Source of the DNA: Deltaproteobacteria bacterium
Lineage (GTDB): Bacteria; Myxococcota_A; Polyangia; Polyangiales; Houyiibacteriaceae
Assembly: GCA_004283055.1 (NCBI GenBank)
Contig: SHLP01000008.1
Coordinates: 668 to 64,667 of the forward strand
Direction: 5' to 3'
Length of the DNA: 64,000 bases
Shown here: piece by piece, positions 27,982-64,000 of the stretch
Layout: the number at the start of each line of letters is the position of its first letter
How positions within the stretch are numbered: position 1 is the first letter of the stretch
Notes under the pieces: generated by a model
What the model was told of the DNA's origin: nothing
Database searches by the model: none
Seen by the model: only the letters and a program-made list of their open reading frames with translations
Position numbers and translations under genes: made by a program

Positions 27982-28022
27982 CCCCCACCTCTCTAGGAAC
28001 TGTCAGGAGGATCGTCGAGCAG

Positions 28023-32093: not shown

Positions 32094-32414
32094 CTAGTCC
32101 AGGATCAGCTTGATCAGCGCGTTGAGGGTCTGATGACCTTCCACGGCGTGGCGAAGGGGAAGGGCGCCGTTGACCTCGTACGTGTTGCGGCGCCCTTCGC
32201 GTGTGCGCGAGACGTATCCGGCGGCCTCGAGCTCGGAGACGATGCGCTGCACGGCGCGCTCGGTGATTCCAACCTTCTCGGCGACGTCGCGCATGCGTGC
32301 CTCGGGGTCTTGAACCAAGCAGAGCAGGACATGCGAGTGGTTCGTCAGAAATGTCCACGCGGCCTCGGGCGCCCGATCCTTGGTTTTCGTCTTCGCCACT
32401 CGGAAACCCTTCAT
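32094..32414 (-). CDS. small winged-helix transcriptional regulator (106 aa), paralogue of 44275..44574
   Basis: AAWTFLTNHSHVLLCLVQDPEARMRDVAEKVGITERAVQRIVSELEAAGYVSRTREGRRNTYEV is an HTH followed by a wing. First gene of the kefG-kefC-type operon. Confidence 0.7.
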   Translation of the reverse strand: MKGFRVAKTKTKDRAPEAAWTFLTNHSHVLLCLVQDPEARMRDVAEKVGITERAVQRIVSELEAAGYVSRTREGRRNTYEVNGALPLRHAVEGHQTLNALIKLILD

Positions 32415-41333: not shown

Positions 41334-42812
41334 CTACGCATTCGCAATCGCCTCCGCGGTTCGTACGCCGCCCAGCGCGACGGCTAGTGTGCTCTGGCCG
41401 AGCAGGACCGAGTCGCCCACGAGATAGAGGCCGGGCGCAGCCTGCCGTGGCCAAAGCGCCCGAGGTCGGTAGTGCTTCCATCCAACACGTCTTGGCACCC
41501 CGCCCACGTAACCCAAATGCCGTCCAGTGAATCGAGCGAACGTCCGAGGGCTTGCCGTCATTTGGAATCTCGCATGGTCGAGAAGCTCGGGCGCGCGCCG
41601 TCTGATCGTCTCTCGCATTCGGTCTTGAATGTCCGCGATGTAGGTGCCCTGTTCCTCCGCACCGAGGGCGCGGAGCCTTTTCATCGGAACGTGCGTGGAA
41701 ACCGTTGCGGTTCGCTGTCCTGCCGGAGCCCGCTCGTGCTCGTCGGCTGCGCTGATCGAACAAAATACGTGGTTGCCTTCGAGGAACGGCGCGTTCTCGT
41801 CATCGACGAGCTGCAAATGGTGCGCCGATGGTCCACTCAGGGCGTCGGAGTCGACGGCGAGGTAGAGCATGGCCGCTCCCCATCCAGACTCCACGGCCGC
41901 CTCGACATCCTGAGTCGCGCCGTTCATCTCTGGTCCGGCCATTGTCGACAGCGATTGCGGCAGGACATTGGCGACGACGGTTTGCGCTCGGAGCTCCCCG
42001 CTTCGGGTGTCGACGCGCCAGGTTCCGGCTTCGCGTCTAAGGCCGCGGACCCGGTTGGCGAGCGACACTCTGCCGCCCGCGCGGTCGATCGCCGCGGTCA
42101 GCGCCCAGGCCAGGCTCCCAATGCCTCCGTGCACGTGGCCGGTGCCGCGAAAGAAGTAGTCGACCGCGGCCATCGCAAAAGGCGCTTCGGCCTCGGTCGA
42201 GCTCGCCTGCACGGTGATTTGGCTGACTGCGTCCAAGTAGACGCGGAGTGGGGCCCAGTCTCTCAGGCCATGACTCGACACGACTTCGGAAAGCGGTCGC
42301 CCCATCCACTGAACGACAGGCGCGTACGACAACGACCGGCCGAGATGCCGCAAGACGGCCGTGGCGCTCAGGGGCGGAAGGAGGGCAGGGTCCTCGAAGA
42401 GCTTCCATAGCGCGTTCGCAACGCCGCGCTGAGTCGCGAAGAACGAACGCAGCGCTTCTGGATTCGCGCCTGGGAGCTCCGCGAACCGCCGAACGAACGC
42501 GTCGGGGTCTGGCGGAACGGCGAGCGACCATTGCCCGGTTCGAAGCTCGACGAGCGGGTCGAGCGTCTCGAAGCGTACGCCCAGGTCCCACTTGTCATTC
42601 CAGTTCGAGAAAAGCTGACCGTCACCGAGTCCCGAAAACAACGTGGCCCCCGCTTCGAATTGATAGCCGCTTCGCGTAAAGGTACTCGCGCAGCCACCGG
42701 GATAGCGAAGCGTTTCGCACAAGACGACGTCGGCGCCGAGCTCGGCCAAGCGCAGAGCAGCTGCGAGGCCACCGAACCCAGCCCCAACCACGACGACGTC
42801 GGCCTTTTCCAT
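41334..42812 (-). CDS. phytoene desaturase (CrtI/CrtD) family FAD-dependent oxidoreductase
   Basis: DVVVVGAGFGGLAAALRLAELGADVVLCE...YPGGCASTF.R.GY.FEAGATL and the C-terminal block LYLVGDSV..GQS are typical of the CrtI family. Confidence 0.75.
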   Translation of the reverse strand: MEKADVVVVGAGFGGLAAALRLAELGADVVLCETLRYPGGCASTFTRSGYQFEAGATLFSGLGDGQLFSNWNDKWDLGVRFETLDPLVELRTGQWSLAVPPDPDAFVRRFAELPGANPEALRSFFATQRGVANALWKLFEDPALLPPLSATAVLRHLGRSLSYAPVVQWMGRPLSEVVSSHGLRDWAPLRVYLDAVSQITVQASSTEAEAPFAMAAVDYFFRGTGHVHGGIGSLAWALTAAIDRAGGRVSLANRVRGLRREAGTWRVDTRSGELRAQTVVANVLPQSLSTMAGPEMNGATQDVEAAVESGWGAAMLYLAVDSDALSGPSAHHLQLVDDENAPFLEGNHVFCSISAADEHERAPAGQRTATVSTHVPMKRLRALGAEEQGTYIADIQDRMRETIRRRAPELLDHARFQMTASPRTFARFTGRHLGYVGGVPRRVGWKHYRPRALWPRQAAPGLYLVGDSVLLGQSTLAVALGGVRTAEAIANA

Positions 42813-44274: not shown

Positions 44275-44574
44275 TCAGGACCGGACCACCCGCACGAGCT
44301 CGCCGACCGAGTGTTCGGACTCGATGGGGTGGCGAAGCGGAATTCCTTCGTTGACTTCGTAATGGGTGCGGCGTCCCTGACGGGTTCGAACGATCACACC
44401 GGCCTCTTCCAGCTCTCTCAAGATGCGCTGCACAGCGCGCTCGGTGACCCCCACGGCCTGCGCAATCTCCCGCACGCGCACGTTCGCGTCGCGTGCGATG
44501 CAGACCAGCACATGCCCGTGATTACTGAGAAAAGTCCACGCCGCGGGGGATTCTGAGCTACCATTTCTCTTCAT
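44275..44574 (-). CDS. small winged-helix transcriptional regulator (99 aa), paralogue of 32094..32414
   Basis: AAWTFLSNHGHVLVCIARDANVRVREIAQAVGVTERAVQRILRELEEAGVIVRTRQGRRTHYEV aligns without gaps to the 32.1-kb regulator. Confidence 0.7.
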   Translation of the reverse strand: MKRNGSSESPAAWTFLSNHGHVLVCIARDANVRVREIAQAVGVTERAVQRILRELEEAGVIVRTRQGRRTHYEVNEGIPLRHPIESEHSVGELVRVVRS

Positions 44575-49179: not shown

Positions 49180-49650
49180 ATGGAGCTCAACACCGGTATC
49201 TCATCCGACCACCGCGAAAAGTTGGCAGCCGAGCTTTCGAGGCTCTTGGCTGACAGCTACACCCTCTATCTCAAGACCCACAACTTCCACTGGAACGTGA
49301 CTGGGCCGATGTTCCAAACTCTCCACTCGATGTTCGAGCTACACTACACCGAGCTCGCGATGGCGGTCGACACCATCGCCGAGCGCATTCGGGCCCTCGG
49401 TGTTCTCGCGCCCGGAAGCTACGCGGCCTTTGGAAGGCTAGCGAGCGTCCCAGACACCGACGCGGCTCCAAACGCGCTCGAGATGATCAGGCTGCTCGTC
49501 GAAGCGCACGAGACGGTGATTCGCACCGCGCGCGAGGTGGTGCGTGCCGCAGAAGATGCCGGCGATCAGGCGACGGCCGACCTCGGGACGCAGCGCCTCC
49601 AGCTTCACGAAAAGACGGCTTGGATGCTTCGGAGTCTGCTCGAGGACTGA
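49180..49650 (+). CDS. dps: Dps (DNA-binding ferritin-like protein)
   Basis: LSRLLADSYTLYLKTHNFHWNVTGPMFQTLHSMFELHYTELAMAVDTIAERIRALG carries the canonical Dps ferroxidase-site residues. Confidence 0.9.
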   Translation: MELNTGISSDHREKLAAELSRLLADSYTLYLKTHNFHWNVTGPMFQTLHSMFELHYTELAMAVDTIAERIRALGVLAPGSYAAFGRLASVPDTDAAPNALEMIRLLVEAHETVIRTAREVVRAAEDAGDQATADLGTQRLQLHEKTAWMLRSLLED

Positions 49651-49661
49651 GTCGTCCGTTC

Positions 49662-49686
49662 CGGAGCGATTTGGCAAACCGCTCCG
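49662..49686 (+). terminator. hairpin after dps (7-bp stem CGGAGCG/CGCTCCG, 11-nt loop)
   Basis: Read directly from the sequence, 12 nt after the dps stop. There is no U-tract, so it may be a partial terminator or attenuator ahead of 49706. Confidence 0.35.
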
Positions 49687-49705
49687 CAGGCCCTAAGGAG
49701 GGTCG

Positions 49706-50482
49706 ATGGCTAAAGGGGTTCGCGACGTGATACGGCGCGCTGCACGTGGCAGCTCGTGGTCACACTTCATGGACTATGCGTCGCCCGCCTTGTTCGAAGT
49801 CATGCCCATGCGAGCGCTTCTCGCTCAGGGAAAGGAATTTGTCTCCAATGGGTCAGACGGGCATCGCTACGCCAAAGTGCGAGAAGGGATCGCGTCGTCA
49901 CTTCGCGCGCGCGGCCTCGATGTCGAGCTGGGGCCTCAGGAAAACAAGGCGAGGGGCCTCGTTCCGGCTGAGCTCTCCGAAGACGCCAGGCGGCAGACGG
50001 GCGATCGCATCCTCGAAATCTACTTCACGCAGATCTTTGCGGGCGATGAAACGATTCTCGACCTGCGCGGCGATTCTTTCTCGACATCCGAAGGGGCCAG
50101 TCTTCAGTGGCGCCCGAAGGCGTTTTACGTGCAATGGCAATCCGACTTCCTGCAAGGGCTTCGAGACCTCTACGCCGGATTTTACCTCGACGAGGAGGCA
50201 CGCTTCGAAGCGGGCTTGCACCGGCTCGGCCTTCAGAATTCCGGCGATGCGCTCGTGAGCCATCTCGGCAGCGGCGATCAGCGCAGTGTCCGGTTCGAGA
50301 CCAGCGCGTTTCACACGAGCTTTCACGACACCTTTTTGGCCTGCCGCGACCGAGGCGTGGCGCTTCATCGGAACTTCCTCGCGCTCGGCATCTATTTGGT
50401 GTGCCTCTACGACGTGCTCGAGTCGCTCGAGCTAGAGTTTGATGTGCGCGGCGCGTTTGAGAGATCGTGCGTGAGCTGTTAG
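49706..50482 (+). CDS. uncharacterised protein, paralogue A of an unrecognised ~260-aa family
   Basis: Shares long collinear blocks with 59980..60771 (YFTQIFAGD / YFTQLFQGD; LRDLYAGFYLDEEARFEAGLHRLG / VRDVYAGFFIDDQAQFQAGLRKLG; RNFLALGIYLVCLYDVLESLELEFDVRGAFERS / RNFVAFGLYLLSLHELLESLDCSFDVRSAFMRS). Confidence 0.65.
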   Translation: MAKGVRDVIRRAARGSSWSHFMDYASPALFEVMPMRALLAQGKEFVSNGSDGHRYAKVREGIASSLRARGLDVELGPQENKARGLVPAELSEDARRQTGDRILEIYFTQIFAGDETILDLRGDSFSTSEGASLQWRPKAFYVQWQSDFLQGLRDLYAGFYLDEEARFEAGLHRLGLQNSGDALVSHLGSGDQRSVRFETSAFHTSFHDTFLACRDRGVALHRNFLALGIYLVCLYDVLESLELEFDVRGAFERSCVSC

Positions 50483-50488
50483 CAGCCG

Positions 50489-51454
50489 ATGAGCCTACCA
50501 CCGCCAAAATCTCGAAAACTGCTTCTCACTGGCGCGACCGGTTTCGTCGGCCGGCATCTCGATGCGGCACTTACCGAGACGAGCTGGCAGGTCATTCGTG
50601 CGACCAGAAATCCAAAGACGGCTTCGCAGCCCGGCTGGGTCTACCTCGACGTCTCCGACCCGAGCTCGATCGACCCGGCTATCGCGGGCTGCGACGCTGC
50701 CGTCTACCTGATCCACTCGATCGACGACTCCGAGGATTATCCGGAACGCGAAGCGCTCGGAGCCAAAGCGTTTCTCGCGGCGGCCGAGCGGGCTGGCGTG
50801 CGACGCATCGTCTACCTCGGCGGCGTTGCGCCAAGGGAAAAACCGTCGAGGCATCTTCTGAGCCGATTGAACACGGGCGAGATTCTGCGGTCGGGGGCGG
50901 TCTCGACCGTCGAGCTTCGATGCGGGCTCATCATTGGTGCGGGAGGCAGCTCGTGGATGATGGTCCGCGATCTTGCCGCGAGACTCCCCGCGATGCTTTT
51001 GCCTCGCTGGCTTCAGTTCTCGTCGTGGCCCGTGTGGATCGAAGACGTCGTTCTCGCGATCGCGCGCGCGCTCGATCTGCCAGGCCAACAGAGCGTGTGG
51101 TACGACGTGCCGGGGCGAGAGCGAATGACCCATGCCAACTTCCTTTCGCGCATCGCCAAGAGCATGGGCAAAGACCCAAGGCTCATCGGCGTGCCGGTGA
51201 TCACGCCGAGGCTCTCGAGCTACTGGATCGCGCTCGTGACCCGGGCGGATTTGGCGCTCGCGCAGGAGCTCGTCCAAGGGCTCCAAAGCGACTTGGATCC
51301 GAGCGGCGAAACGATCTGGGAGCGCCTCGGTGACGAGCGCCCAACGGAGTTCCAGACTTCTGTGTACCAGGCGCTCGAAGACGAGACAGCCGCCAGTGTC
51401 CCGACGCCGAAATTGGTGCGACGAATGCGTGACCGATTGAAGGGCGACGCCTAG
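50489..51454 (+). CDS. NAD(P)-binding (NmrA/atypical SDR-like) protein
   Basis: LLLTGATGFVGRHL glycine-rich motif and an extended-SDR layout. Starts 6 nt after paralogue A. Confidence 0.8.
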   Translation: MSLPPPKSRKLLLTGATGFVGRHLDAALTETSWQVIRATRNPKTASQPGWVYLDVSDPSSIDPAIAGCDAAVYLIHSIDDSEDYPEREALGAKAFLAAAERAGVRRIVYLGGVAPREKPSRHLLSRLNTGEILRSGAVSTVELRCGLIIGAGGSSWMMVRDLAARLPAMLLPRWLQFSSWPVWIEDVVLAIARALDLPGQQSVWYDVPGRERMTHANFLSRIAKSMGKDPRLIGVPVITPRLSSYWIALVTRADLALAQELVQGLQSDLDPSGETIWERLGDERPTEFQTSVYQALEDETAASVPTPKLVRRMRDRLKGDA

Positions 51455-52081
51455 GTGGAGCGGCTCGAGCGAGTCGAGGCCGTCGCGCTCGCCGCTTCAG
51501 TGGCAGCGTTTTGCGTGGCGATGGGTCTGCGCGAAGTCCTCAACATCTGGATCGGAACCGGCGCCGCCGCGCTGACCGCCTTGCTTGCGCTGTGGTTCGG
51601 CGCGCGTCCTGTGCTTCGATCCAACTTTCGGTCGCCCGCTGCGAAGAATCTGCTCGTCGGGCTTTCCGTCGGGGTACTGATGTCGATCGCGACCTGGTGG
51701 CTGTATCCCATCAGCGTGTCACTATTCCCGCCGATTCAAACCGAGGTCGAGACGCTCTACGCCCTGCTTCGTCAAGCTCCGGGGCCGGTTCGTGCCTTCC
51801 CCGTGCTCCTCTTGGTGGTTGCGGCGGAAGAGCTCGTCTGGCGCGGCGTTGCGATCGATCTCTTCTCGAAATCGCTCGGCCCCTGGCGCGCGATGGTGGT
51901 CTCGGCTCTTCTGTATGTTCTTCCGCAGGTCGCGCTGCGGTCGCCCTTGCTCATCATCGTCGCTCTGTGCTGCGGCCTCCTGTGGGGAGCTTTGCGGGTA
52001 CAAACCAAGGGCCTCGCCGCGCCGTTGGTTGCTCACCTGGTCTGGAACAATCTGGTGTTCGTCTGGCACCCCGTGGCCTGA
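51455..52081 (+). CDS. CPBP-family intramembrane glutamic endopeptidase (CAAX protease-like)
   Basis: Polytopic. Motif 1 is AAEELVWRG and motif 3 is VAHLVWNN. The GTG start immediately abuts the preceding stop. Confidence 0.75.
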   Translation: MERLERVEAVALAASVAAFCVAMGLREVLNIWIGTGAAALTALLALWFGARPVLRSNFRSPAAKNLLVGLSVGVLMSIATWWLYPISVSLFPPIQTEVETLYALLRQAPGPVRAFPVLLLVVAAEELVWRGVAIDLFSKSLGPWRAMVVSALLYVLPQVALRSPLLIIVALCCGLLWGALRVQTKGLAAPLVAHLVWNNLVFVWHPVA

Positions 52082-52099: not shown

Positions 52100-53320
52100 C
52101 TAGGTGATTGTGAATGACGGCTCTTCTCCGCGGAGGATACGGGTCAGGTCGCCCCGAACCACTCGATTTCCAACCTCCGAGACAAGCTGGCTTGCACCGG
52201 GTACGCGGCGGCGAATCCATTCGAATGGCGCGACCGCTGCGCGAATCGGATAGACCGAGTACTGCCAGAGATCGTTGGGGATGCCGAGGTCGTCTGCGAT
52301 CTCTGGGCCGTTGAATGCGCGCGCGAGCCCGTTGTGGATCCGACTCACCGCAAGCGCGACGACGGGGGGTGCCTTCCCGTTCGCGTTCTGCCCCGGCACC
52401 TTCAGAAGCTGCTCGGTCAAGGCGCGCGAATCGTCGTCGGGCCCGGGCTGTACCAGCCGAAGAAGATCGGCGAGGCGCCGAGTCTTCCCTTCGCTTCCGA
52501 GCTGCTCGAGCAGCCACGGGTCGACGCCGCTCAAGTGTCCACAGTATCGCCACAACGCGAGAATGGCTTCTCGCTCCTCCGCAGTGAGGTAAAAACCGAG
52601 ACGCTGCGCACCGTCCATCATGAGGAGCGAAAACTCCAACAGAGTCCCAAACATGTCGGCCTGGTTGATCGGCAGTCCCCACAGATCGGTGCGCCACCTG
52701 CCCGAGTCCAAGCAAGCGCGCCGCACGTGTGAATGGATCAAACTCACGCGCAGTGAGATCTCCCTGCCCGGGCGTCCAGGTCGAAGACCGTCGACCTGCG
52801 TGGCCTCACTAACGAAGCGCGCCGTCTCGGCGAGCCGCCGCTGAGGGCGGCCGATGAGCTCCCCGGTAAACGCCAGCGGTTTGACGGCTGCGCTCGAGTG
52901 ATACCCGTTGATGAGAGACCACGCGCTGAGGACGATCATGCCGAGGACTCCGAATCGCTGGTAGGCAAGCGCTCCGCTGCGGATCTGATCAAAGTCGACC
53001 CAGGCTGGAAGCGCATCGGCGCGCTCGAAGAATGCTCTGAGCTCTAATGAAGCTTCCGGAACCGCTGAAATGCCGTCGCGAAGAGCGCGTTCGAACTGGG
53101 ACTGGGCCCACTCGCCGTGGCGTTCGATCCATCGAACGAGCGCATCGGACAGCGGGTCTCCAGCGAGGTAAAAGCCTGCGTAGCGATCGGAATCGTCTCC
53201 GAAGCGCCGCCGGGCTTCCTCCCTGTTTTGATACCGATTTGGGTAGTCGGACTCGTTCATGGGCACGGTCAACCTAAGGCTCGGAGAGACATGCGGCCAG
53301 GTCCGGGCCGGCAGGCTCAT
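52100..53320 (-). CDS. DUF2236 / MpaB-family oxygenase domain protein
   Basis: About 400 aa. The pattern LRVSLIHSHVRR ... WG.PINQ.DM..TL..F resembles the DUF2236 (MpaB / rubber-oxygenase-like) family. ATGA overlap with the upstream DUF1295 gene. Confidence 0.7.
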   Translation of the reverse strand: MSLPARTWPHVSPSLRLTVPMNESDYPNRYQNREEARRRFGDDSDRYAGFYLAGDPLSDALVRWIERHGEWAQSQFERALRDGISAVPEASLELRAFFERADALPAWVDFDQIRSGALAYQRFGVLGMIVLSAWSLINGYHSSAAVKPLAFTGELIGRPQRRLAETARFVSEATQVDGLRPGRPGREISLRVSLIHSHVRRACLDSGRWRTDLWGLPINQADMFGTLLEFSLLMMDGAQRLGFYLTAEEREAILALWRYCGHLSGVDPWLLEQLGSEGKTRRLADLLRLVQPGPDDDSRALTEQLLKVPGQNANGKAPPVVALAVSRIHNGLARAFNGPEIADDLGIPNDLWQYSVYPIRAAVAPFEWIRRRVPGASQLVSEVGNRVVRGDLTRILRGEEPSFTIT

Positions 53321-54204
53321 TGCCGAGGTGGGCGGGGAATCAGCACCGGCGTCTGGTCCTTGTACCGGCGATAGCCTTCTTCATCGCCCCATCGTTCATC
53401 GGACCGCTTCTCGAGGAGCGGAATGCCGCTTACGCGTGTGAGCAACACGATCACGAAGATTGGAGAGATCATCGTGGCCCATTGCCAGCCAACGAGCGTC
53501 GAGGCTGCGATCAGAGCCACTCCAAACCAAAGGACGATTTCGCCGAAATAGTTCGGGTGCCGTGACCAGGCCCAGAGCCCGGTGTCAACGTACCGCCCCG
53601 GGTTCGCCGCGCGAAACTCGCTTTTCTGAAGGTCGGCGATGACTTCAATCGCAAAGCCGGTCGCCCAGACCACAAGGCCGATTGCGTCGAGCAGGCCGAA
53701 CGGTGACGGCTTCACCGTCGTGATCGCGGCAAGCGCCGCGCAAAGCGTCAAAAACACCCAAAAGCCTTGAAGGGTCCAGGCGATCAGAAACCGCGAGGCG
53801 CTCGGCTTGATTTCGTCGAAGCGGGGATCGGAGCCCGCATTTTGGATGCGCCGGAATAGAAAGCTACCGAGGCGCGAGGCCCAAATGAAAACCAAAAGCG
53901 CGAGGAGGATGGAGCGGCCATCGTTCGGGCGGGAAGCGAAGAGAGCAAAACCCGTGACCAGCATGTACGTCAGGCTGCCCACGAGATCGTAGTAGTGCTC
54001 GGTCTGTTTCAAGTAAGCCGGCACAAATGCAAGCCACTGCACGCCGAACGCGATCGCAGCGCACGAGAAGAGGATCGAGATACCGCCCGTTTGTGCGCCG
54101 CCATGCCCCCCGGCCCAGGCTACGACGGCAGCGACCGTCACCGCGCCCGAGATCACCCCCGCTGCAAGCGCAACTCGTTGAAATCCCATGAGTCCTTGGG
54201 CCAT
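53317..54204 (-). CDS. DUF1295 membrane protein (steroid 5-alpha-reductase / ICMT-like fold)
   Basis: YYDLVGSLTY, FIWASRLGSFLFRR, DPRFD and GLWAWSRHPNYFGEI..W.G are DUF1295 hallmarks. The ATG at complement(54202-54204) was chosen, and the longer track ORF (to 54393) was discarded. Confidence 0.8.
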   Translation of the reverse strand: MAQGLMGFQRVALAAGVISGAVTVAAVVAWAGGHGGAQTGGISILFSCAAIAFGVQWLAFVPAYLKQTEHYYDLVGSLTYMLVTGFALFASRPNDGRSILLALLVFIWASRLGSFLFRRIQNAGSDPRFDEIKPSASRFLIAWTLQGFWVFLTLCAALAAITTVKPSPFGLLDAIGLVVWATGFAIEVIADLQKSEFRAANPGRYVDTGLWAWSRHPNYFGEIVLWFGVALIAASTLVGWQWATMISPIFVIVLLTRVSGIPLLEKRSDERWGDEEGYRRYKDQTPVLIPRPPRQ

Positions 54205-54411
54205 AGCAGCAGAGGGTGCCGTTTGTCGAACGTCCCCCGAGACGGGCAGGGGACACTCTGGTGGGCGCCCGCGTCCGTCGCGGTTACCGCATCCGGAAGG
54301 GGCACACGGGAAGCTGACGGCGAGCATGGAGTCGGCTACGATCCTCGCAGCAGGCGGGTATTCGAGCTTTCGCAAAGAAATGCAGCGGTTCATGGAGTCC
54401 AGGAGTCGAAA

Positions 54412-56465: not shown

Positions 56466-57470
56466 CTACGCCGCGTCCGCGCGGACCTCTTCGACCGCTT
56501 CGCCCAAGGCCTCCCGGAGCGGCGTGTATTGCATCCCCAGCTCACGTTTGGCGCGGGTCCCATCGAAGATCAGCGAGCCTGCGGCCGTTGTCTTGAGGAT
56601 GTCGACAGGGATCGCGGGACGCGTCTTCGTCCAGCGTGCCCATTGCTCGAGCAGCCGCGCGATGGGGATGAGCAAGCGTTCGGGAAGATTGATTCGAGGC
56701 ACCGGCACGTTGGCGAGGTCGCCTATGATCGAGAAGTAGTCTCTCGTAGTGGCGCGCTCGGTGCCGATCAGGTAGCGCCGCCCGGTGCTGTCCGGGCTCA
56801 GAAGCGCGCGGACGATGGCTTCCGCGGCGTCGCCGACATGAAGATACGTATAGGTCGTGTCGGCCCCGACGAGCACGGGAAGCCTGCGTTCAACGGCGCG
56901 GCGCACCTCCATGGTCGGCCGTGGGTCGCCGGCTCCGATCACGGCCGCCAAGTGAACGACAGTAAGCGGAAGACCTCGTTCGGCGTGCATGCGCCAGCCG
57001 ATTTGATCGGCGTGGTGCTTGCTTCTGGCGTAGTGCGACGGATGCGGTCCCGGAGCGGTCTCCTCGTCGAAGGGGATATCTGCCGGTATGCCGAACGCGA
57101 GTGGAGTGCTCACTTGAACCACTTTGTGCGCTTGGGCGCGCAGCGCGGCTCGAAACACGTTCTGGGCCCCCTGGGTGTTTAGCTCGTCGTACAGCTCGGG
57201 GCGCAGGCTCCAGAAGTCCCGATACCCTGCGAGATTGATGATACCCCAGGCCCCCTTCACCAGCGGAGTCAGCGACGCAGGCTCGCAGATGTCGCCTCGC
57301 ACACAGCTCACCCGCTCGTCCAAGGCGCCGAGCTCGCTTGCGTCCTTCTCCGAGCGCACGAGGCATCGAAGCACGAGGTCTGGCTCCTCGAGCAAACGCT
57401 CCAGGACGTACCCTCCGACGAAGCCAGTTGCGCCGGTGACCGCGATGGTTCGGATCGAGGCTTCCACCAC
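56466..57470 (-). CDS. NAD-dependent epimerase/dehydratase-family (extended SDR) oxidoreductase
   Basis: IAVTGATGFVGGYVLERLL glycine motif, and YARSK matches YxxxK. Confidence 0.8.
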   Translation of the reverse strand: MVEASIRTIAVTGATGFVGGYVLERLLEEPDLVLRCLVRSEKDASELGALDERVSCVRGDICEPASLTPLVKGAWGIINLAGYRDFWSLRPELYDELNTQGAQNVFRAALRAQAHKVVQVSTPLAFGIPADIPFDEETAPGPHPSHYARSKHHADQIGWRMHAERGLPLTVVHLAAVIGAGDPRPTMEVRRAVERRLPVLVGADTTYTYLHVGDAAEAIVRALLSPDSTGRRYLIGTERATTRDYFSIIGDLANVPVPRINLPERLLIPIARLLEQWARWTKTRPAIPVDILKTTAAGSLIFDGTRAKRELGMQYTPLREALGEAVEEVRADAA

Positions 57471-57547: not shown

Positions 57548-58627
57548 ATGGAGCTGAAAGCGTCTACGAGAGGTCCAAGCGCGAAAAGCCTATCGACGAT
57601 CGGGATCGCCCTGCGTATGGCAGAGGCGGGCTTGTTTCCAGAGCTGGTCCTCCGAGCCGGCACACGCCATCTGCTCCAGAGGCGACTTCGGGAGAGCGTC
57701 AGCGGTTCGGTCGAGGCGCGAGAGCGGGAGCAGACCGCGCTCATGGATAGCTTAGCCGGCGGTCCTATCGCGATTGATGTCGCAGCGGCGAACGAGCAGC
57801 ACTACGAGGTCCCTGCACCTTTCTTCGAGCTCGTTCTCGGCCCACGGCTCAAATACAGCTGTTGCCATTGGGACAACCGCACGCCAAACCTCGCCGCCGC
57901 GGAAGACGCCATGCTGGAGCTCACCGCACGGCGCGCGAAAATCCAAGACGGTATGCGGATACTCGACCTCGGCTGCGGCTGGGGGTCGTTCACGCTCTGG
58001 GCAGCGGAGAAGTTTCCGAACTCCAACATTTTGGCGGTGTCGAACTCCCACATCCAGCGCGCATTCATCGAAGGGCGTGCCACCGAGCGGGCGCTCACCA
58101 ACGTTCGCGTGGAGACCACAGACATCAACGATTTTCAACCGGACGAACCGTTCGACAGAGTCGTGTCGATCGAGATGATGGAGCATGTGCGTAACCATCG
58201 TGCGCTCTTCGAGCGAATCGCAGCCTGGCTTGCCGATGACGGCCTGGCCTTTTCTCACATCTTCTGCCATCGGTCGCACGCGTATACCTACGAGCACCGC
58301 GACCCGAGCGACTGGATGGCCAAGAACTTCTTCACGGGCGGGATGATGCCCTCGGAGGGAATGTTTCAGCGGTACCAGGACGATCTAGTCTTGCGCGAGC
58401 AGTGGCGAGTGAATGGAAGGCACTACCACCGCACCTGTGACGCCTGGCTCGAACGCCTCGACCAGAATCGAGACACCGCTCTGCGGATTCTTGCCGACGG
58501 ATACGGCTCGGATGCCTCGCGCTGGTTCCACCGCTGGAGGTTGTTTTTCATCGCCTGTTCGGAGCTTTTCGAGTACCGGAATGGTGCGGAATGGTTCGTG
58601 TCGCACTATTTATGGGAAAAGCGTTGA
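57548..58627 (+). CDS. cyclopropane-fatty-acyl-phospholipid synthase family SAM-dependent methyltransferase
   Basis: HYEVPAPFFELVLGPRLKYSCCHW ... MRILDLGCGWGSFTLWAAE (SAM motif I) ... DRVVSIEMMEHV are the family blocks of CFA/mycolic-acid synthase-type enzymes. Confidence 0.85.
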   Translation: MELKASTRGPSAKSLSTIGIALRMAEAGLFPELVLRAGTRHLLQRRLRESVSGSVEAREREQTALMDSLAGGPIAIDVAAANEQHYEVPAPFFELVLGPRLKYSCCHWDNRTPNLAAAEDAMLELTARRAKIQDGMRILDLGCGWGSFTLWAAEKFPNSNILAVSNSHIQRAFIEGRATERALTNVRVETTDINDFQPDEPFDRVVSIEMMEHVRNHRALFERIAAWLADDGLAFSHIFCHRSHAYTYEHRDPSDWMAKNFFTGGMMPSEGMFQRYQDDLVLREQWRVNGRHYHRTCDAWLERLDQNRDTALRILADGYGSDASRWFHRWRLFFIACSELFEYRNGAEWFVSHYLWEKR

Positions 58628-58629
58628 GC

Positions 58630-59424
58630 TCACGGCGTGATCTCTTTTCCGCGGAAATCGAAGATCTTGCCGCTGTCGTCGGGCTCGAGTGAATCGATCA
58701 CTCGGAGAAGCGCGGCGACGGATTTGCTCGGGGGCAGCAGCTGCGTCTCAGGTACGTTTCGTTGGAACGGCTTCGAAAGGCCGGTGTCTACGGTGCCAGG
58801 ATGAAGCCCGACGACGATTGCATGCGGGGCGACTCTCGCGAGCTCGATCGAAATGTTTTTGGTGAACATGTTCTGAGCGGCTTTCGAACCGCGATACGCG
58901 TACCATCCTCCCAGGCGGTTGTCCGAAATGCTTCCGACGCGCGCGGAGAGGCTCGCGAAAACCGACCGCTTGCGGTGTCGAAGGAAGTCGTGGAAGTGCT
59001 TTGCAATCAGCAGGGGACCAAAAGCGTTGACCTCGAACGCGTGACGCAGCGGCTCGGGTTCAACCTGGGCAAGCTTCTTTTCCGGGCCGAAGCCCGGTCC
59101 ATGAAGGATGCCTGCAACGTTGAGGATCAGCTCCAACTGCTCTGTCTCGCCCGCTACGGCTTCCGCCGCGGCAGCGATGGACGTCTCCTCTCGAACGTCG
59201 AGCGCGATCGCCCGAAGACGTCCGGGATGCTGAGCTGCGAGCTCCTGAAGCTCAGCGGCGTCGTCCGGTCGCCGGCATGTCGCGATGACGCGACCGCCGG
59301 GCTGCCTCTCCAGCAGCTGTCGAACGAGCTCCAAGCCGATACCGCGGCTCGCTCCTTGGACCAACGAGGTGCCACCGAGCTGCATCACTCGCCGCATTGT
59401 TCGATACGGGCGCGGCTCTGCCAA
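58630..59424 (-). CDS. classical SDR-family oxidoreductase
   Basis: VQGASRGIGLELVRQLL (TGxxxGIG-type motif), NVAG and YRGSK (YxxxK). The start is uncertain because there are several in-frame Met codons. Confidence 0.8.
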   Translation of the reverse strand: MAEPRPYRTMRRVMQLGGTSLVQGASRGIGLELVRQLLERQPGGRVIATCRRPDDAAELQELAAQHPGRLRAIALDVREETSIAAAAEAVAGETEQLELILNVAGILHGPGFGPEKKLAQVEPEPLRHAFEVNAFGPLLIAKHFHDFLRHRKRSVFASLSARVGSISDNRLGGWYAYRGSKAAQNMFTKNISIELARVAPHAIVVGLHPGTVDTGLSKPFQRNVPETQLLPPSKSVAALLRVIDSLEPDDSGKIFDFRGKEITP

Positions 59425-59528
59425 GACGCGACGCCCCTGTCGGGCGGCTCAAAGACGCAGCGCAGCGATTTGAGTCCAAGGCCCCGCAAAGGGAAGAAAT
59501 TCCGACTGTCCATCATTTGTCCACCACT

Positions 59529-59560
59529 TTGCTTGACATAACTTAGACAGATCCTAAAAG
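59529..59560 (+). promoter_or_regulatory. candidate promoter TTGACA-N16-TAAAAG overlapped by two 11-bp-spaced nAnnTnnACAn-like repeats
   Basis: TTGACA at 59533-59538 and TAAAAG at 59555-59560. GGAGG at 59568-59572 lies 6 nt before the ATG at 59579. Repeat 59540-59550 (aAacTtagACAg register) matches the pattern fully. Repeat 59529-59539 matches T and ACA but not the first A. Confidence 0.35.
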
Positions 59561-59578
59561 CGTGACTGGAGGTATCAC

Positions 59579-59806
59579 ATGAACCAGTCATCCACGGGGT
59601 CAGCCCAGAAGGTCAGTTTCCGCAGCGCGCTCGCCGTCCTCGGCTCCGCCAAGCTGCTCTTCTTTCTCGCCGCAGGCCTCTCCTACCTTTTGTCGATCTG
59701 GCTCTGGTTTTCAGGCGATCGCGAGCGCGGCCTCTTCGTTGGGCTCTGGGTTCCGTCGATTCTGTCAGCCGGTGCCCTCCTGCTGAGCCGGGGTCACCAT
59801 GAATGA
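59579..59806 (+). CDS. small membrane protein (75 aa, 2 TM)
   Basis: Preceded by a GGAGG Shine-Dalgarno. Two hydrophobic helices (LLFFLAAGLSYLLSIWLWF; LFVGLWVPSILSAGALLL). First gene of a tightly packed 4-gene operon. Confidence 0.5.
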   Translation: MNQSSTGSAQKVSFRSALAVLGSAKLLFFLAAGLSYLLSIWLWFSGDRERGLFVGLWVPSILSAGALLLSRGHHE

Positions 59807-59975
59807 TCTCGACCTTCTGATCGCTGGTGCGATGGTCTCGTTTCTCTCGGTGGCCGGCGCCTACATCGCGGTCCGTCACCGCGCGAACGAAGAGCCCGTG
59901 CGCTCGTTCGCGCCGCCCGCCGAGGGCCCTTCTTCCTCCTCGGTGCACGCTCAAGATCGTCCAACGCCAAGGTAG
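59799..59975 (+). CDS. small membrane protein (58 aa, 1 TM), not in the supplied ORF track
   Basis: Own translation: MNDLDLLIAGAMVSFLSVAGAYIAVRHRANEEPVRSFAPPAEGPSSSSVHAQDRPTPR. The start overlaps the preceding stop by 8 nt, and the stop lies 4 nt before the next start. It is below the 60-aa cut-off of the track. Confidence 0.35.
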   Translation: MNDLDLLIAGAMVSFLSVAGAYIAVRHRANEEPVRSFAPPAEGPSSSSVHAQDRPTPR

Positions 59976-59979
59976 CTCG

Positions 59980-60771
59980 ATGTCCGCGTATGAGATGCAC
60001 GTGGCGAAGCTCTTCCGAGGCGCCCCCCAGCCCAGAAGCGAGTGGAGCGGCGTACTCGACCTAGTGACCCCGGGCCTCGACCTTCTCGCGCCGCAGGAGC
60101 TGTTTCAGCAGTCGCTCGAGCTCGTCAGCAATGCTGCGAATACACGCCGCTACGCCTCGGTGCGCGACACAGCACAGGCCACGCTTCGAAGCGCCCGGGT
60201 TGACATTCTCGTGGAGGAGCAGCGAAGGAAGATCCGACTCGTCCCTTCGTCGGATTTGAAACGCACGCAGCGCCGTTGGCTGGGACAGCTCGTTCTGCAG
60301 CTCTATTTCACGCAGCTCTTCCAAGGCGACACCGCCGTGATCGACCTCTGGCCGAGCCGACTCGGCATCAACGCCGCAGGGGATGCGATTTGGAACCCTC
60401 GACCGTTGTATGTTCGCTGGGACGCAGAATTCATTGGCGCCGTCCGAGACGTGTACGCGGGGTTTTTCATAGACGACCAAGCGCAGTTCCAGGCTGGCTT
60501 GCGCAAGCTTGGCGTAGAGGCCGCGGGTGGCCTCGCGCTGCGCCACTTAGGGGAGGGGACCCAGAGGGGCGTTCGCTTCAGCACCGCCCACCTGGGCGCC
60601 ACGCTGCGTGAGATCTCCGACCTGAACCTGAACCTGAGCCGTGCCGGTACACTCAGCCGAAACTTCGTCGCCTTTGGTCTCTACCTACTCTCGCTCCACG
60701 AGTTGCTCGAATCGCTCGACTGCTCGTTTGACGTACGCAGCGCCTTCATGCGCAGCTATCGAAGATTTTGA
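59980..60771 (+). CDS. uncharacterised protein, paralogue B of the 49706..50482 family
   Basis: The internal ATG at 59980 gives MSAYEMHVAKLF... The C-terminal ~190 aa are collinear with paralogue A. The upstream part of track ORF 59827..60771 overlaps the small ORFs in another frame. Confidence 0.65.
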   Translation: MSAYEMHVAKLFRGAPQPRSEWSGVLDLVTPGLDLLAPQELFQQSLELVSNAANTRRYASVRDTAQATLRSARVDILVEEQRRKIRLVPSSDLKRTQRRWLGQLVLQLYFTQLFQGDTAVIDLWPSRLGINAAGDAIWNPRPLYVRWDAEFIGAVRDVYAGFFIDDQAQFQAGLRKLGVEAAGGLALRHLGEGTQRGVRFSTAHLGATLREISDLNLNLSRAGTLSRNFVAFGLYLLSLHELLESLDCSFDVRSAFMRSYRRF

Positions 60772-60772
60772 C

Positions 60773-61426
60773 ATGCGCTGGGCTGGAGCGGGCCTCGGGT
60801 TGATTCTTTTGCTGGCCGCACTCGGGGCCATCGTGCTCGGAGGTGGGACAGTGGCGTACGAAAGCCCGACATACTCGGTCAGCCAAACTCTGGGCAACGT
60901 CGAAATCCGTGAGTATCGCCCTTACTTGGTCGCCGAAACGGTAGTCGGCGGCACTCCAGACACCGCCGGGAATGAGGGCTTTCGGATTCTCGCGAAGTAC
61001 ATCTTCGGCAGCAACCGCGGTACGCGCAAGATCGCAATGACGGCCCCCGTTAGCCAAAAGAAGGTCGGGGGGACGAAAATCGCCATGACCTCGCCGGTCA
61101 CACAGGAGAAAGTGGGCGATGAGTTCGTGGTTCAGTTCATGATGCCCTCCGAATACACAATCGAAGAGCTGCCCGAGCCCGACGACACGCGGATCAGTTT
61201 CCGACAAGTCCCGGCCCGCACCTTTGCGGCGGTTAAATATTCAGGCTCGTGGTCGCAGGGGAACTATCAGAAACACCTGGCACTGCTGCTCGATGAGTTG
61301 CGATCGGCAGGGTACGAGGCGATCGGCGAACCGATCTGGGCGCGCTACGATGCGCCGTTCAAACCTTGGTTCTTGAGGCGGAACGAAATCCTCACTGCAT
61401 TTGAGGCGCCGCCCGGGGAGCGCTGA
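60773..61426 (+). CDS. SOUL haem-binding-family protein with an N-terminal membrane anchor/signal
   Basis: The ATG at 60773 lies 1 nt after the preceding stop. YESPTYSV......VEIREY.PYLVAET.V ... GFRILAKYIFG.N......IAMTAPV ... matches the SOUL/HEBP family pattern. Confidence 0.75.
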   Translation: MRWAGAGLGLILLLAALGAIVLGGGTVAYESPTYSVSQTLGNVEIREYRPYLVAETVVGGTPDTAGNEGFRILAKYIFGSNRGTRKIAMTAPVSQKKVGGTKIAMTSPVTQEKVGDEFVVQFMMPSEYTIEELPEPDDTRISFRQVPARTFAAVKYSGSWSQGNYQKHLALLLDELRSAGYEAIGEPIWARYDAPFKPWFLRRNEILTAFEAPPGER

Positions 61427-63047
61427 GCGGTTTGGGCCGAAGCAAGCCGCGCGGTGCGACCGTGAAGATCGTCTCCTCGCGCAGACCGAGCTCCCGGAAA
61501 ACAGCGTTGGCACAAAGCAGCCCAGATACAAAGGCGGCTTCCATGTGGGTCATCGGGTAGGGCAGACGCACCCAATCGCCGGCCATGAGCAAGCCTTGAA
61601 TGGGCGACTCCGCCGTGGGCCGGAGCGCATGTTGTCCCGGAGCAAACGCTGGGAAATCGCGGCGGACCTGCAGGACTTCATTCGAAATGCACAGACCCTG
61701 TAGCTCGGGAAAGTAGTGATAAAGCTCTTCCAGGAAAACCGCGCGAAGTTCCTCGTCCCCATCGATGTCGCGCGGCAGCGCGTAGCTATGAAGCTCCAAG
61801 ACGGCGCCGCCGTTTACTTCGACCCAGGCCGACGCTTCGTCGGTGACGCGGTGGTAGAGCGTCACCGAGTCCAGCACGCGCTTGCGATCCACGTTGATGA
61901 AGGTGGGCAGGCCGGACCGAACGTCTCGATTGACCCAAATTCGCCAAACCGCGTAACCGTGCGAAGTGCGCAGCGCTAGCATCTTGCCAACGAAATCGGG
62001 GTCCGCCTCCTGCAGCCATTCGGAGCCTTCGATAATTGCCTGCATCCCCGGAATGTCCGCGGCCAGCACGACCCAGTCGTATTCCTCGTGTCCAATCTGA
62101 AAACGTTTGCTCTCGCCCGTTTCGATGCGGGACACGGGGGAGCCCATTCGAAGGTCGACCCCGTGCTCCTCGAGATGCGCGCGAATCGGAGCCAGGAGCG
62201 TCGTTTCGTAGTCGCCGGCCGGGTAGTCGTAGATGAGGCCGTGATCATGGCTGAGATAGTAGAAGTGAAATGCGCGAAGCACGTCTGCCGTCGAGAGGTC
62301 AGCCTCGTCGGAAAAGAAGGCGCGGGCAAACGTTCGAAACGAAAGCCGTAGCTCCGGCGGGAGATCGGCCTCGTCGCAGTATCGGCCGAAGGGAATCGAA
62401 TCGAATGCTTCATAGGTGCGTTCCATGTCGAAGCGAACGAACGAATCGAGCCGCTCGCGCGTCTGCTTGCGAATGACATCGCGCCAGCGATAAAAGCCGC
62501 GGCGACCGAGGTCTACGATGTTGAGCGCAGGGACCGTGTCTACGTCTCCGTAGCTCTGCGGATGAAGGTCGGAATGAAGGATCAGGTAGTCTTCAATTGC
62601 GCTGAAATCTTTGCGGATGCCCAGGCGGTCCAGGAACTCGTTCAAGTTGTAGTACTGCCGAAAGAACGCGTGAAACCCATGCTCGACAGTCTGCTCGGTG
62701 TCCCCCACCGGGACCGTCCAGGCGCCAATCTTTCCGCCGAGATACGCGTTGCGCTCGAAAAGAGTCACTTCGACGCCGCGCTCGGCAAGCGAGGAAGCGG
62801 CCCCGATGCCAGCGAGTCCGCCTCCAAGAACGGCCACCCTCGGCGTGCCGCCGCGGAGATCCTTCGGCAATGCCCGATCGCTCGGCTCGACTTCGTGGCG
62901 ATATCCGCCCAGCTTGCGCTCGACGAGTCGACCGAGGGCTCGCTTCGGCCGACCACCCCGCATGGCGAGCCAAATCAACAGGGCCACGAGGGCTGCCGCC
63001 CACCACCAAATGCTCACTTCGACACCCTCTTTTCCTGTACCATGCAA
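61392..63047 (-). CDS. FAD-dependent oxidoreductase, carotenoid desaturase-like (possibly CrtU/isorenieratene-synthase-like)
   Basis: N-terminal TM helix, the RVAVLGGGLAGIGAASSLAERGVEVTLFERNAYLGGK Rossmann motif, and an HGFHAFFRQYYNL block that I associate with CrtU-type enzymes. The track start is a TTG at 63047, and GTG at complement(63015-63017) is an alternative. Confidence 0.7.
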   Translation of the reverse strand: MHGTGKEGVEVSIWWWAAALVALLIWLAMRGGRPKRALGRLVERKLGGYRHEVEPSDRALPKDLRGGTPRVAVLGGGLAGIGAASSLAERGVEVTLFERNAYLGGKIGAWTVPVGDTEQTVEHGFHAFFRQYYNLNEFLDRLGIRKDFSAIEDYLILHSDLHPQSYGDVDTVPALNIVDLGRRGFYRWRDVIRKQTRERLDSFVRFDMERTYEAFDSIPFGRYCDEADLPPELRLSFRTFARAFFSDEADLSTADVLRAFHFYYLSHDHGLIYDYPAGDYETTLLAPIRAHLEEHGVDLRMGSPVSRIETGESKRFQIGHEEYDWVVLAADIPGMQAIIEGSEWLQEADPDFVGKMLALRTSHGYAVWRIWVNRDVRSGLPTFINVDRKRVLDSVTLYHRVTDEASAWVEVNGGAVLELHSYALPRDIDGDEELRAVFLEELYHYFPELQGLCISNEVLQVRRDFPAFAPGQHALRPTAESPIQGLLMAGDWVRLPYPMTHMEAAFVSGLLCANAVFRELGLREETIFTVAPRGLLRPKPLSAPRAAPQMQ

Positions 63048-63075: not shown

Positions 63076-63108
63076 CTGTCTAGATGGTGTCAAGGTCTTG
63101 TCAGGTCC
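63076..63108. promoter_or_regulatory. three tandem 11-bp direct repeats (cTGTctAgaTg / gTGTcaAggTc / tTGTcaggtcc), CarH/LitR-operator-like
   Basis: Read directly from the sequence. On the minus strand the first two match nAnnTnnACAn perfectly, and the third keeps only ACA. They lie in the 99-nt divergent gap between the CrtU-like and lycopene cyclase genes. Confidence 0.45.
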
Positions 63109-63126: not shown

Positions 63127-63146
63127 CCTAAAATGGCCGGGGAGCG

Positions 63147-64000
63147 ATGACCAACCTGCACGATCTCGCCGTGCTGGGGAGCGGGCCGGCTGCGCTGGCG
63201 GTCGCGTCGGCCTGCGTTCAACGAGGGGCGTCGGTCCTTCTCATCGCCCCCGAGCCGCACGCGGCTTGGCTTCCAAACTACTGCCTTTGGGCCGACGAAG
63301 TGCCCGTCGCGCTTCAAGATCTGACCGAGCAGTTCTGGCCCCGAGCAGCCGTGGCCACCACGCTTGCTCGTCGGAGCCTCGACCGTTCGTACGTCAAGCT
63401 CGACACCTTCGCGCTCCAGCAGCATTTCTGGGACGCGTTCCGCGGGGGGTCCGTCGGCGTGGTACCGAAGCGCGCGGTGCGTTTGGAGCACCAGCCCAGC
63501 TCCACCACGGTTCACACGGAGGACGGAACCGAGCACCGGGTCCGGGTGGTGATCGACGCATCGGGAGCAGGCACGCCCTTCGTGCGACGCGTTCACGCTC
63601 GGCCGCCGGCCTACCAAACCGCGTACGGCCTTCTCTTGGACGCGCCGCAGCACCGTTTCGATTCCTCGCAGTTGGTGCTCATGGATTTCCGACCCGGACC
63701 GACCGCCAGCCTGGAGCCGCCGTCCTTTTTGTACGTGCTCCCACTCGACGATGGTCGATTGTTCCTCGAGGAGACCTCGCTCGCGCGCCGACCAGCGATG
63801 TCGATGGGCACGCTGCGTGAGCGCCTGGAAACGCGCTTGACGTCGCTCGGCCTTGCTCGGAGCAGGCGTATCGGGCAAGAGCGATGCTCGATCGCGATGG
63901 GGCTAGGCTTGCCTGCACCTGTGCAATCTCTGGTCCCCTTCGGGGCTGCAGCGGGGATGGTGCATCCTGCGTCCGGCTACCTGATGGCCCATGTCCTGCG
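63147..64000 (+). CDS. lycopene cyclase family protein (CrtL/CrtY-type), 3' end beyond the window
   Basis: Own translation: MTNLHDLAVLGSGPAALAVASACVQRGASVLLIAPEP...LPNYCLWADEV ... FLYVLPLDDGRLFLEETSLA ... PFGAAAGMVHPASGY. These are the dinucleotide motif and the lycopene-cyclase conserved blocks. Not in the ORF track because no stop lies in the window. Confidence 0.8.
   Translation, partial: MTNLHDLAVLGSGPAALAVASACVQRGASVLLIAPEPHAAWLPNYCLWADEVPVALQDLTEQFWPRAAVATTLARRSLDRSYVKLDTFALQQHFWDAFRGGSVGVVPKRAVRLEHQPSSTTVHTEDGTEHRVRVVIDASGAGTPFVRRVHARPPAYQTAYGLLLDAPQHRFDSSQLVLMDFRPGPTASLEPPSFLYVLPLDDGRLFLEETSLARRPAMSMGTLRERLETRLTSLGLARSRRIGQERCSIAMGLGLPAPVQSLVPFGAAAGMVHPASGYLMAHVL

Follow-up and report, generated by a model that had tools for sequence, protein, structure and literature searches.

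A conserved gene trio encoding two membrane micro-proteins and a predicted UbiB-like protein, under a putative CarH-type operator, in uncultured Myxococcota

We analysed a 64-kb stretch of contig SHLP01000008.1, from a genome with a G+C content of 63% (hereafter the window; all coordinates refer to its full length). Four genes, named g1 to g4, follow one another on the forward strand behind a promoter that carries a repeated operator motif. The features of this locus are listed here.

59507-59549, no strand assigned: operator; half-sites TGTCCA at 59507, TGTCCA at 59518, TTGACA at 59533 and TAGACA at 59544
59533-59572, forward strand: promoter and ribosome binding site; -35 element TTGACA (59533-59538), 16-nt spacer, -10 element TAAAAG (59555-59560) and Shine-Dalgarno (SD) sequence GGAGG (59568-59572), with the ATG at 59579
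59579-59806, forward strand: g1, 75 aa; two-transmembrane (TM) hairpin with the near-invariant motif WLWFSGDRERGLFVGLWVPSILS
59799-59975, forward strand: g2, 58 aa; single TM helix
59980-60771, forward strand: g3 (paralogue B), 263 aa counted from ATG; soluble
60773-61426, forward strand: g4, 217 aa; SOUL/HEBP domain with an N-terminal segment resembling a signal anchor or signal peptide

Direct reading of the sequence confirmed the open reading frame (ORF) coordinates and junctions given in a first-pass annotation. The genes g1 and g2 overlap by 8 nt, and gaps of 4 nt and 1 nt separate g2 from g3 and g3 from g4. In all four genes G+C at third codon positions (GC3) is 0.73-0.76 and G+C at second positions (GC2) is low. 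This is the coding pattern of the genome, and it was not seen in other-frame ORFs overlapping g1-g4. Hydropathy analysis bore out the proposed membrane segments: g1 has a pair of TM-length windows, g2 and g4 have one each (that of g4 at its N-terminus), and g3 lacks any. Rfam and tRNA scans across the window returned nothing. The predicted TTGACA-N16-TAAAAG promoter and its GGAGG are present as described, and proved to be the most conserved non-coding element across 25 loci. Tight coupling, as a unit of transcription and translation with its own promoter and SD, is supported by the junctions, an invariant g1/g2 overlap and the conserved promoter. A single promoter almost certainly drives g1-g2-g3-g4.

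Homologous loci were collected by a profile search, taking one genome per species, and mapped using tblastn and ORF extraction. Nearly all of the 47 loci obtained, labelled L001 and so on, derive from uncultured members of the Myxococcota; the few others belong to Acidobacteria, Holophagales and Bradymonadia. The order g1-g2-g3, here called the triad, is kept in 24 other species-level Myxococcota genomes, down to 45% g3 identity. The overlap of the g1 stop and g2 start, RTGAnTGA, is invariant (24 of 24 loci) and reads ATGAATGA in the window. Spacing between g2 and g3 ranges from -4 to +15 nt, with a GAGG-type SD usually inside the final g2 codons. Median pN/pS values, comparing non-synonymous with synonymous change, are 0.33 for g1, 0.47 for g2 and 0.44 for g3; all three genes are under purifying selection. 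Across triad loci, the g1 core WLWFSGDRERGLFVGLWVPSILS is near-invariant. Homologues of g1 fall into 581 clusters, all of about 75 aa, all named hypothetical and none with a Pfam domain. In g2 the TM helix and a juxtamembrane RHRANExPVxSY motif are kept, and the tail after the motif is variable. None of g1, g2 and g3 matched Pfam at E<=0.1 or NCBIfam at E<=0.01. Because order, overlap, purifying selection and homologue clusters are conserved, g1 and g2 are real genes. The two mini membrane proteins, first described as lacking a recognisable family, thus exist as such. Three variant triads were seen: L032 has a g1-g2 fusion ORF of 88 aa (5729-5995), L025 has a truncated g1 and no g2 (5842-5997) and in L034 the operator is followed at once by g3. 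Assembly errors or genuine decay could account for these variants.

The position of g4 is less constant. It lies directly 3' of g3 at only 7 of 24 loci, comprising the clade nearest the window and L030. At L014, L018 and L019 a SOUL gene lies several kb from the triad, immediately 3' of carH, a regulator gene discussed below. At about 14 loci SOUL is absent from the flank, and g3 is then followed by a convergent CMAS gene or a DUF427 gene. The SOUL gene instead co-travels with a convergent FAD-oxidoreductase gene, the two 3' ends overlapping by 35 nt in the window (61392-61426). The conserved unit is three genes, g1-g2-g3, and g4 is an optional accessory. Conservation of the small ORFs and of gene order, which the first-pass annotation had named as a check on its four-gene operon, thus extends to the triad and stops short of g4.

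The family assigned to g4 is secure. The protein matches Pfam SOUL (PF04832) over profile positions 1-171 of 173 (E 3.1e-46; 158 bits against a cut-off of 27). In all 11 orthologues a K/R-preceded hydrophobic stretch (~22 residues) stands ahead of the SOUL domain, so the N-terminal hydrophobic segment is also a kept feature. A stretch of this kind marks exported or signal-anchored proteins, so the SOUL domain of g4 is probably periplasmic, across the membrane from g3, which has no hydrophobic segment. A tandem duplication of a KIAMT(A/S)PV(S/T)Q motif occupies g4 residues ~85-110 (61025-61110) and is conserved in 11 of 11 orthologues. Briefly, g4 resembles the SOUL/HEBP family in its whole-domain match and duplicated KIAMTAPV motif. 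It differs in being bacterial, in its N-terminal signal anchor or peptide, in its putative membership of a light regulon and in its loose linkage to g1-g3.

These observations bear on the idea that all four products form one membrane-tethered complex, with SOUL as its ligand-binding heart, that senses or detoxifies photosensitising porphyrins. Protoporphyrin IX is a photosensitiser in the Myxococcus light response, and the light-type operator described below suits such a theme. The strong SOUL/HEBP match and the 1-nt gap between g3 and g4 also favour this idea. However, SOUL adjoins the triad in 7 of 24 loci only, being found elsewhere after carH or missing from the flank. The SOUL domain sits behind a signal-anchor-like segment and is probably periplasmic, whereas g3 is predicted to be cytoplasmic. 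For this reason, a four-protein complex around a tetrapyrrole binder is unlikely. The recurrent partners of g3-type proteins are carotenoid, retinal and lipid enzymes rather than haem enzymes and, for many SOUL-fold proteins, we know of no demonstrated haem binding. We consider the porphyrin complex improbable. The proposal of a co-conserved four-gene unit forming a complex is therefore not upheld.

The soluble product g3 was modelled twice with AlphaFold. The first model, built with 34 homologues, had pLDDT 85.4 and pTM 0.84; the second, built with 150 diverse family representatives, had pLDDT 91.6 and pTM 0.89. Both show the same architecture: four helices over the first ~70 residues, then a helix / small-sheet / helix domain. 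In Foldseek searches of the PDB, human COQ8A/ADCK3 was the top match to both models (E 3e-5 and 4e-5; TMq 0.60-0.64). It was followed by two ABC1 proteins of mycobacteria, MSMEG_1954 and Rv3197, and the top three together span E 3e-5 to 4e-3 and TMq 0.5-0.64. Ordinary protein kinases gave a TM-score of only ~0.2. BLASTP against E. coli UbiB aligned g3 residues 84-155 with UbiB 245-317, placing QLYFTQLF opposite QVFFTQVF. In this alignment, D122 of g3 equates to the Asp of the UbiB motif HADMHPGN, R127 to the Asn of that motif and D148 to the Asp of IDCG. Near-invariance across the 150 representatives is limited to D122 and a number of aromatic and Gly positions. D135 and D148 are conserved in B-type proteins, but D148, the IDCG/DFG-equivalent Asp, is not conserved in the wider family.

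Both models lack the N-lobe beta sheet; only helices precede residue 95. Of the motifs defined for UbiB proteins (PMC7263595), neither the Ala-rich loop (protein kinase-like motif I) nor the invariant Lys is conserved in g3 family alignments. Without sheet, loop and Lys, ATP binding is doubtful, and on these models g3 very probably does not bind ATP. Hence, g3 very likely has a UbiB/COQ8/ABC1-like fold devoid of the nucleotide-binding N-lobe, while not being a member of PF03109 (ABC1). The "unknown soluble partner" of the first-pass annotation can therefore be recognised, by its predicted fold. An alternative is that g3 is an active UbiB-type ATPase or kinase whose nucleotide site is rebuilt from the N-terminal helices or from a partner protein. 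Near-invariance of D122, at the catalytic-loop position, and conservation of D135 and D148 in B-type proteins are what one would cite for it. Against these stand the missing N-lobe elements, replacement of the catalytic-loop Asn by Arg (R127) and the patchy conservation of the DFG-equivalent Asp, which leave an active enzyme very improbable.

The structural comparison also bears on a signalling role, in which g3 would be a membrane-bound pseudokinase relaying a membrane, light or oxidative signal to a regulator, as an anti-sigma-like protein or pseudokinase scaffold. Its predicted fold is indeed kinase-like without catalytic equipment, the cytoplasmic motif of g2 resembles a docking peptide and, in L002, a gene for an ECF sigma factor lies 3 kb away. 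However, the nearest structures are UbiB-family lipid handlers (TM ~0.6, against ~0.2 for signalling kinases), and the triad is consistently linked to enzymes and to no regulator. In addition, translation of the A-type paralogue described below is always coupled to that of an enzyme-like protein that binds NAD(P). We regard a signalling device as a poor fit and improbable.

We next describe the promoter region. Alignment of the 110 nt upstream of g1 from 25 loci gave the consensus TGTCYA-N5-TGTCYA-N9-TTGACA-N5-TAGACA-N4/5-CTAGAA...GGAGG...ATG. The array of half-sites is conserved in 25 of 25 promoters, and the -35, the CTAGAA/TAAAAG -10 and the GGAGG are kept too. In the window, the four TnGACA/TGTCnA half-sites are phased at 11 bp, have dyad symmetry and overlap the -35 and spacer. 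A generic promoter scan did not pick the g1 promoter; its -10 rule demands T at position 6. The phylogenetic footprint is better evidence for this promoter than the scan. A second array lies beyond g4, between two divergent genes.

61392-63047, reverse strand: FAD-dependent oxidoreductase (amine-oxidase / HpnE / phytoene-desaturase-like); convergent with g4
63077-63104, reverse strand: second operator; three tandem 11-bp repeats, CTGACA, TTGACA and TAGACA
63132-63998, forward strand: lycopene cyclase (Pfam PF05834, E 3e-56), cut by the window end

This second array is conserved in L005, L006 and L030. Within the window, the pattern T.GACA-N5-T.GACA is confined to the g1 promoter and 63077-63104, with 3 matches against 0.05-0.2 expected. 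The window and 51 loci together contain 60 matches in 547 kb, where ~1 is expected. Nearly all are at promoters of the same gene set: upstream of g1, of the FAD-oxidoreductase/lycopene cyclase pair, of operons joining rhodopsin, beta-carotene dioxygenase (Blh) and g3-like genes, of a long NAD_binding_10 gene and of carH.

CarH is a photoreceptor-repressor, dependent on adenosylcobalamin, that binds tandem 11-bp direct repeats nnnnTnnACAn (PMC9304148). In the Myxococcus Pcrt promoter the -35 TTGACA is inside one such repeat, and the design extends, with considerable plasticity, to Sorangiineae and Nannocystineae, including inverted repeats at a CarA/CarH site (PMC9304148). The g1 site (59533-59549, with the inverted pair 59507-59523) and 63077-63104 both fit this published pattern of an operator overlapping the -35 or -10. 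We searched the window and loci for carH using a Thermus thermophilus CarH sequence, validated hits by Pfam and repeated the search with the L014 protein. Homologues with MerR_1 and B12-binding_2 domains were found within the cluster in L014 (5506-6423), L018, L019, L028 and L032. In L028 the motif is directly upstream of carH (8342). L014 (2819-7142), L018, L019 and L032 share the order g1-g2-g3, DUF427, NAD_binding_10, fasciclin, carH, SOUL; the L014-type NAD_binding_10 protein has 475 aa and the motif upstream of its gene.

As the -35 and spacer sit within TnGACA repeats phased at 11 bp, a type of site to which CarH binds, the operon is probably dark-repressed and light-induced via a CarH-type repressor. 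Control by CarH itself is likely, judged from sequence. The earlier guess of a link to light or photosensitiser stress agrees with this operator and with the lycopene cyclase, the photolyase and, in relatives, rhodopsin/Blh. The likeness to CarH/CarA-controlled Pcrt promoters of Myxococcales (PMC9304148) comprises 11-bp-phased TnnACA, a TTGACA -35 within a repeat, carotenoid targets and carH linkage in relatives. The differences are the symmetric 2+2 inverted arrangement at g1 and putative targets never listed for CarH, namely mini-proteins, a UbiB-like protein, SOUL, NAD_binding_10 and rhodopsin/Blh.

Another regulator might bind these repeats in response to a stimulus other than light, such as oxidative or membrane stress. 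No carH was found in the 64-kb window with the two homologue queries, and two paralogous genes for small MarR-like winged-helix proteins (32094-32414 and 44275-44574) could supply a candidate. Moreover, the g1 repeats are inverted as 2+2, unlike those of a classic CarH site, where 3-4 tandem repeats all point the same way. In contrast, the site at the FAD-oxidoreductase/lycopene cyclase promoter has three tandem repeats of the same orientation, exactly as published for CarH, and the published plasticity accommodates inverted repeats (PMC9304148). Furthermore, carH is embedded in the cluster in five loci, once with the motif directly upstream, and both rhodopsin/Blh and carotenoid genes are among the putative targets. 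A regulator other than CarH is thus unlikely, though it should be kept in mind.

The two small winged-helix proteins, both encoded on the reverse strand, have ~100 aa, are MarR/TrmB-like and share the motif WTFL(T/S)NH(S/G)HVL.

Proteins of the g3 type occur in three genomic settings. The first is the triad. The second is represented in the window by paralogue A, the additional copy claimed at the outset, which was found and is 37% identical to g3.

49706-51454, forward strand: paralogue A (49706-50482) with the NAD_binding_10/NmrA-like gene that is its constant partner (50489-51454); mini-ORFs and operator absent

In this A-type setting, an NAD_binding_10/NmrA-like gene always lies within a few nt 3'. 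The pairing also occurs in the Acidobacteria, Holophagales and Bradymonadia loci, and with a distant metagenomic member, P0218, where the two genes overlap by 4 nt. No TnGACA operator was found in the paralogue A block. In the third setting, a rhodopsin/Blh operon ends with a B-type copy that has no mini-ORFs. This arrangement was found in metagenome-assembled genomes of four species representatives (L001/L017, L013, L016 and, partially, L012). The common theme of these settings points to isoprenoid pigments, because of the rhodopsin-Blh operons and the lycopene cyclase adjoining the window cluster. The g3 family as a whole comprises 472 clusters at 50% identity and is wholly unannotated. Look-ups of distant clusters returned only the name "hypothetical protein", with no taxa attached, and one distant neighbourhood had no Pfam hits on record.

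Further details of these blocks were noted. The clusters in L001/L017 (3009-6861), L013 and L016 contain DAO-like, bacteriorhodopsin and Blh genes with the g3-type gene last, and TnGACA repeats upstream of the rhodopsin gene. In the window, genes for Dps-ferritin, paralogue A, an NAD_binding_10 protein and a CAAX protease stand in a row (49180-52081), after which come convergent MpaB/Lcp-like oxygenase and DUF1295 genes (52100-54393). The paralogue A block is conserved in L037, L038, L041 and L049.

Three enzyme genes upstream of g1 are conserved neighbours of the triad.

56466-57470, reverse strand: HpnA/3-beta-HSD-like NAD-dependent epimerase/reductase
57548-58627, forward strand: CMAS/CFA-synthase-like S-adenosylmethionine-dependent methyltransferase
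58630-59424, reverse strand: short-chain dehydrogenase (SDR; Pfam adh_short), divergent from g1, probable start near 59385

The SDR gene is the most constant neighbour, being divergent upstream of g1 in ~21 of 25 loci. On the other side, the convergent g4/FAD-oxidoreductase arrangement recurs in L005-L009, L030 and L043, and pairing of FAD-oxidoreductase and lycopene cyclase is conserved in L005-L007, L023 and L030. Elsewhere, the window encodes a DNA photolyase/cryptochrome and another two FAD enzymes of the amine-oxidase / CrtI-like kind (27969-29522, 41334-42812 and 26142-27590). Taken together, the gene content of the window suggests an island for photoprotection and lipid modification. 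It also encodes a hemerythrin-GGDEF diguanylate cyclase (18195-19310, reverse strand) and a lysine/alanine-rich, histone-H1-like ORF with AKKxxAKK repeats (21063-21767, forward strand). The CFA-synthase-like, SDR and FAD-oxidase genes had suggested a sigma-E/ChrR regulon for singlet oxygen and furan fatty acids (UfaM/UfaD/UfaO-type). This was dropped as the primary reading because no ChrR/ECF pair or fitting promoter was found in the window and the conserved operator is CarH-type.

From gene structure, conservation, fold similarity, operator conservation and carH linkage we infer light regulation, a complex of g1, g2 and g3, a lipid-chaperone role and its ligand. Our best reading is that light induces a "half-UbiB" module, anchored at the membrane, which handles lipids of the isoprenoid or pigment type. 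We propose it tentatively, as somewhat short of an even chance. Light would lift CarH repression of g1-g4, and the FAD-oxidoreductase, lycopene cyclase and, in relatives, rhodopsin/Blh operons would respond likewise. Termination-reinitiation at the invariant overlap would yield g1 and g2 in a fixed ratio; g3 would be translated a few nt after g2, from the SD inside the final g2 codons. In g2 the N-terminus is acidic and RHR immediately follows the TM helix; by the positive-inside rule, the N-terminus is probably outside and the conserved tail cytoplasmic, on the same side as g3. The g1 hairpin and the single helix of g2 could then dock cytoplasmic g3 at the inner membrane, resembling UbiB's own C-terminal TM hairpin. 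Retaining the helical part and C-lobe of the UbiB family, and having lost the ATP-binding N-lobe, g3 would act without ATP as a chaperone or scaffold. The complex may extract or present hydrophobic isoprenoid lipids, whether pigments of the carotenoid or retinal type or membrane lipids related to them, during light stress, with the neighbouring SDR, methyltransferase, reductase, desaturase or cyclase as receiving enzymes. A later addition in one clade, g4 would be an exported or anchored SOUL-fold ligand binder of the same light regulon and probably not a stoichiometric subunit. Consistent with such a role, the chaperoning or extraction of isoprenoid-lipid intermediates has been ascribed to COQ8 (bioRxiv 10.64898/2026.02.03.703536; PMC8346625). 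That g3 is a chaperone and that its ligand is a pigment is, taken together, a possibility that we judge less likely than not.

Several results weigh against this half-UbiB module, beside the lack of carH in the window. PF03109 did not match g3 at E<=0.1; among the 150 family representatives it gave 2 weak matches, the best at E 7e-4 and 19 bits against a cut-off of 22.9. A g3 profile search of PDB sequences found nothing meaningful. Comparison of the g3 family with a 4-sequence UbiB alignment by hhalign was collinear but weak (probability 8%), and the same family against E. coli UbiB alone likewise gave only a weak, collinear alignment. Hence, sequence-level homology between g3 and UbiB is not significant at database scale and we do not claim it. 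The fold match itself is moderate (TM ~0.6, root-mean-square deviation 5-7 A), and the ATP-gated pocket of the COQ8 mechanism cannot apply as such to a protein with no N-lobe. Distant g3-family members occur in unrelated gene contexts. Lastly, the CMAS, SDR and HpnA-like neighbours could equally act on fatty-acyl or hopanoid/sterol-type lipids as on carotenoids.

Comparison with known systems is informative on both sides. UbiB, COQ8 (ADCK3) and ABC1K proteins (PF03109) are the best, and only convincing, structural match to g3 in the two models. The alpha-E helix and catalytic-loop segment can be aligned between them and, like the putative g3 module, UbiB/COQ8 proteins are tied to membrane isoprenoid-lipid pathways. 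The C-terminal two-TM hairpin of E. coli UbiB is comparable with g1 as an architectural analogy only, as sequence similarity between the two was not significant. However, g3 has 263 aa, compared with ~380 aa for a UbiB/COQ8 kinase-like domain, which possesses the N-lobe beta sheet, Ala-rich loop and catalytic Lys that g3 lacks, and its proposed membrane anchor comes from separate micro-proteins. A similar mix of proteins is found in the chloroplast plastoglobule proteome: ABC1K kinases, a SOUL protein, NAD(P)-binding "flavin reductase-related" proteins, methyltransferases and a carotenoid cleavage enzyme. Published work lists both ABC1K and SOUL as plastoglobule proteins. In plastoglobules such proteins gather around neutral isoprenoid lipids under light stress; here the mix is known from genes, and the likeness is an analogy only. 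Unlike g3, the plant plastoglobule ABC1Ks are full-length. Our literature search turned up no account of a UbiB-like family without the N-lobe, none of the g1/g2 micro-proteins and none that names these genes as targets of CarH.

In its widest form, our proposal is that g3-type proteins may form a class of "half-UbiB" chaperones, not recognised before, that serve carotenoid or retinal-type pigments without ATP and are switched on by light through CarH. Different paralogues would be anchored by g1/g2, placed in rhodopsin-Blh operons for hand-over of beta-carotene or retinal between enzyme and opsin, or paired with an NAD(P) enzyme. We consider this wide form speculative and unlikely to hold in full. 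UbiB/COQ8 proteins are ancient and disease-relevant, with a mechanism still debated, and the g3 family offers a minimal natural system for what the helical/C-lobe half binds. If the half-UbiB chaperone reading is true, it would show what the non-nucleotide half of the UbiB fold does alone. With their invariant overlapping stop and start, g1 and g2 provide a clean case of obligatory co-translation and add to the catalogue of small membrane proteins. Should the operator be correctly assigned, the regulon of CarH in uncultured Myxococcota would extend well beyond carotenoid genes to rhodopsin/Blh, SOUL and lipid-modifying enzymes, giving a testable map of a bacterial light response.

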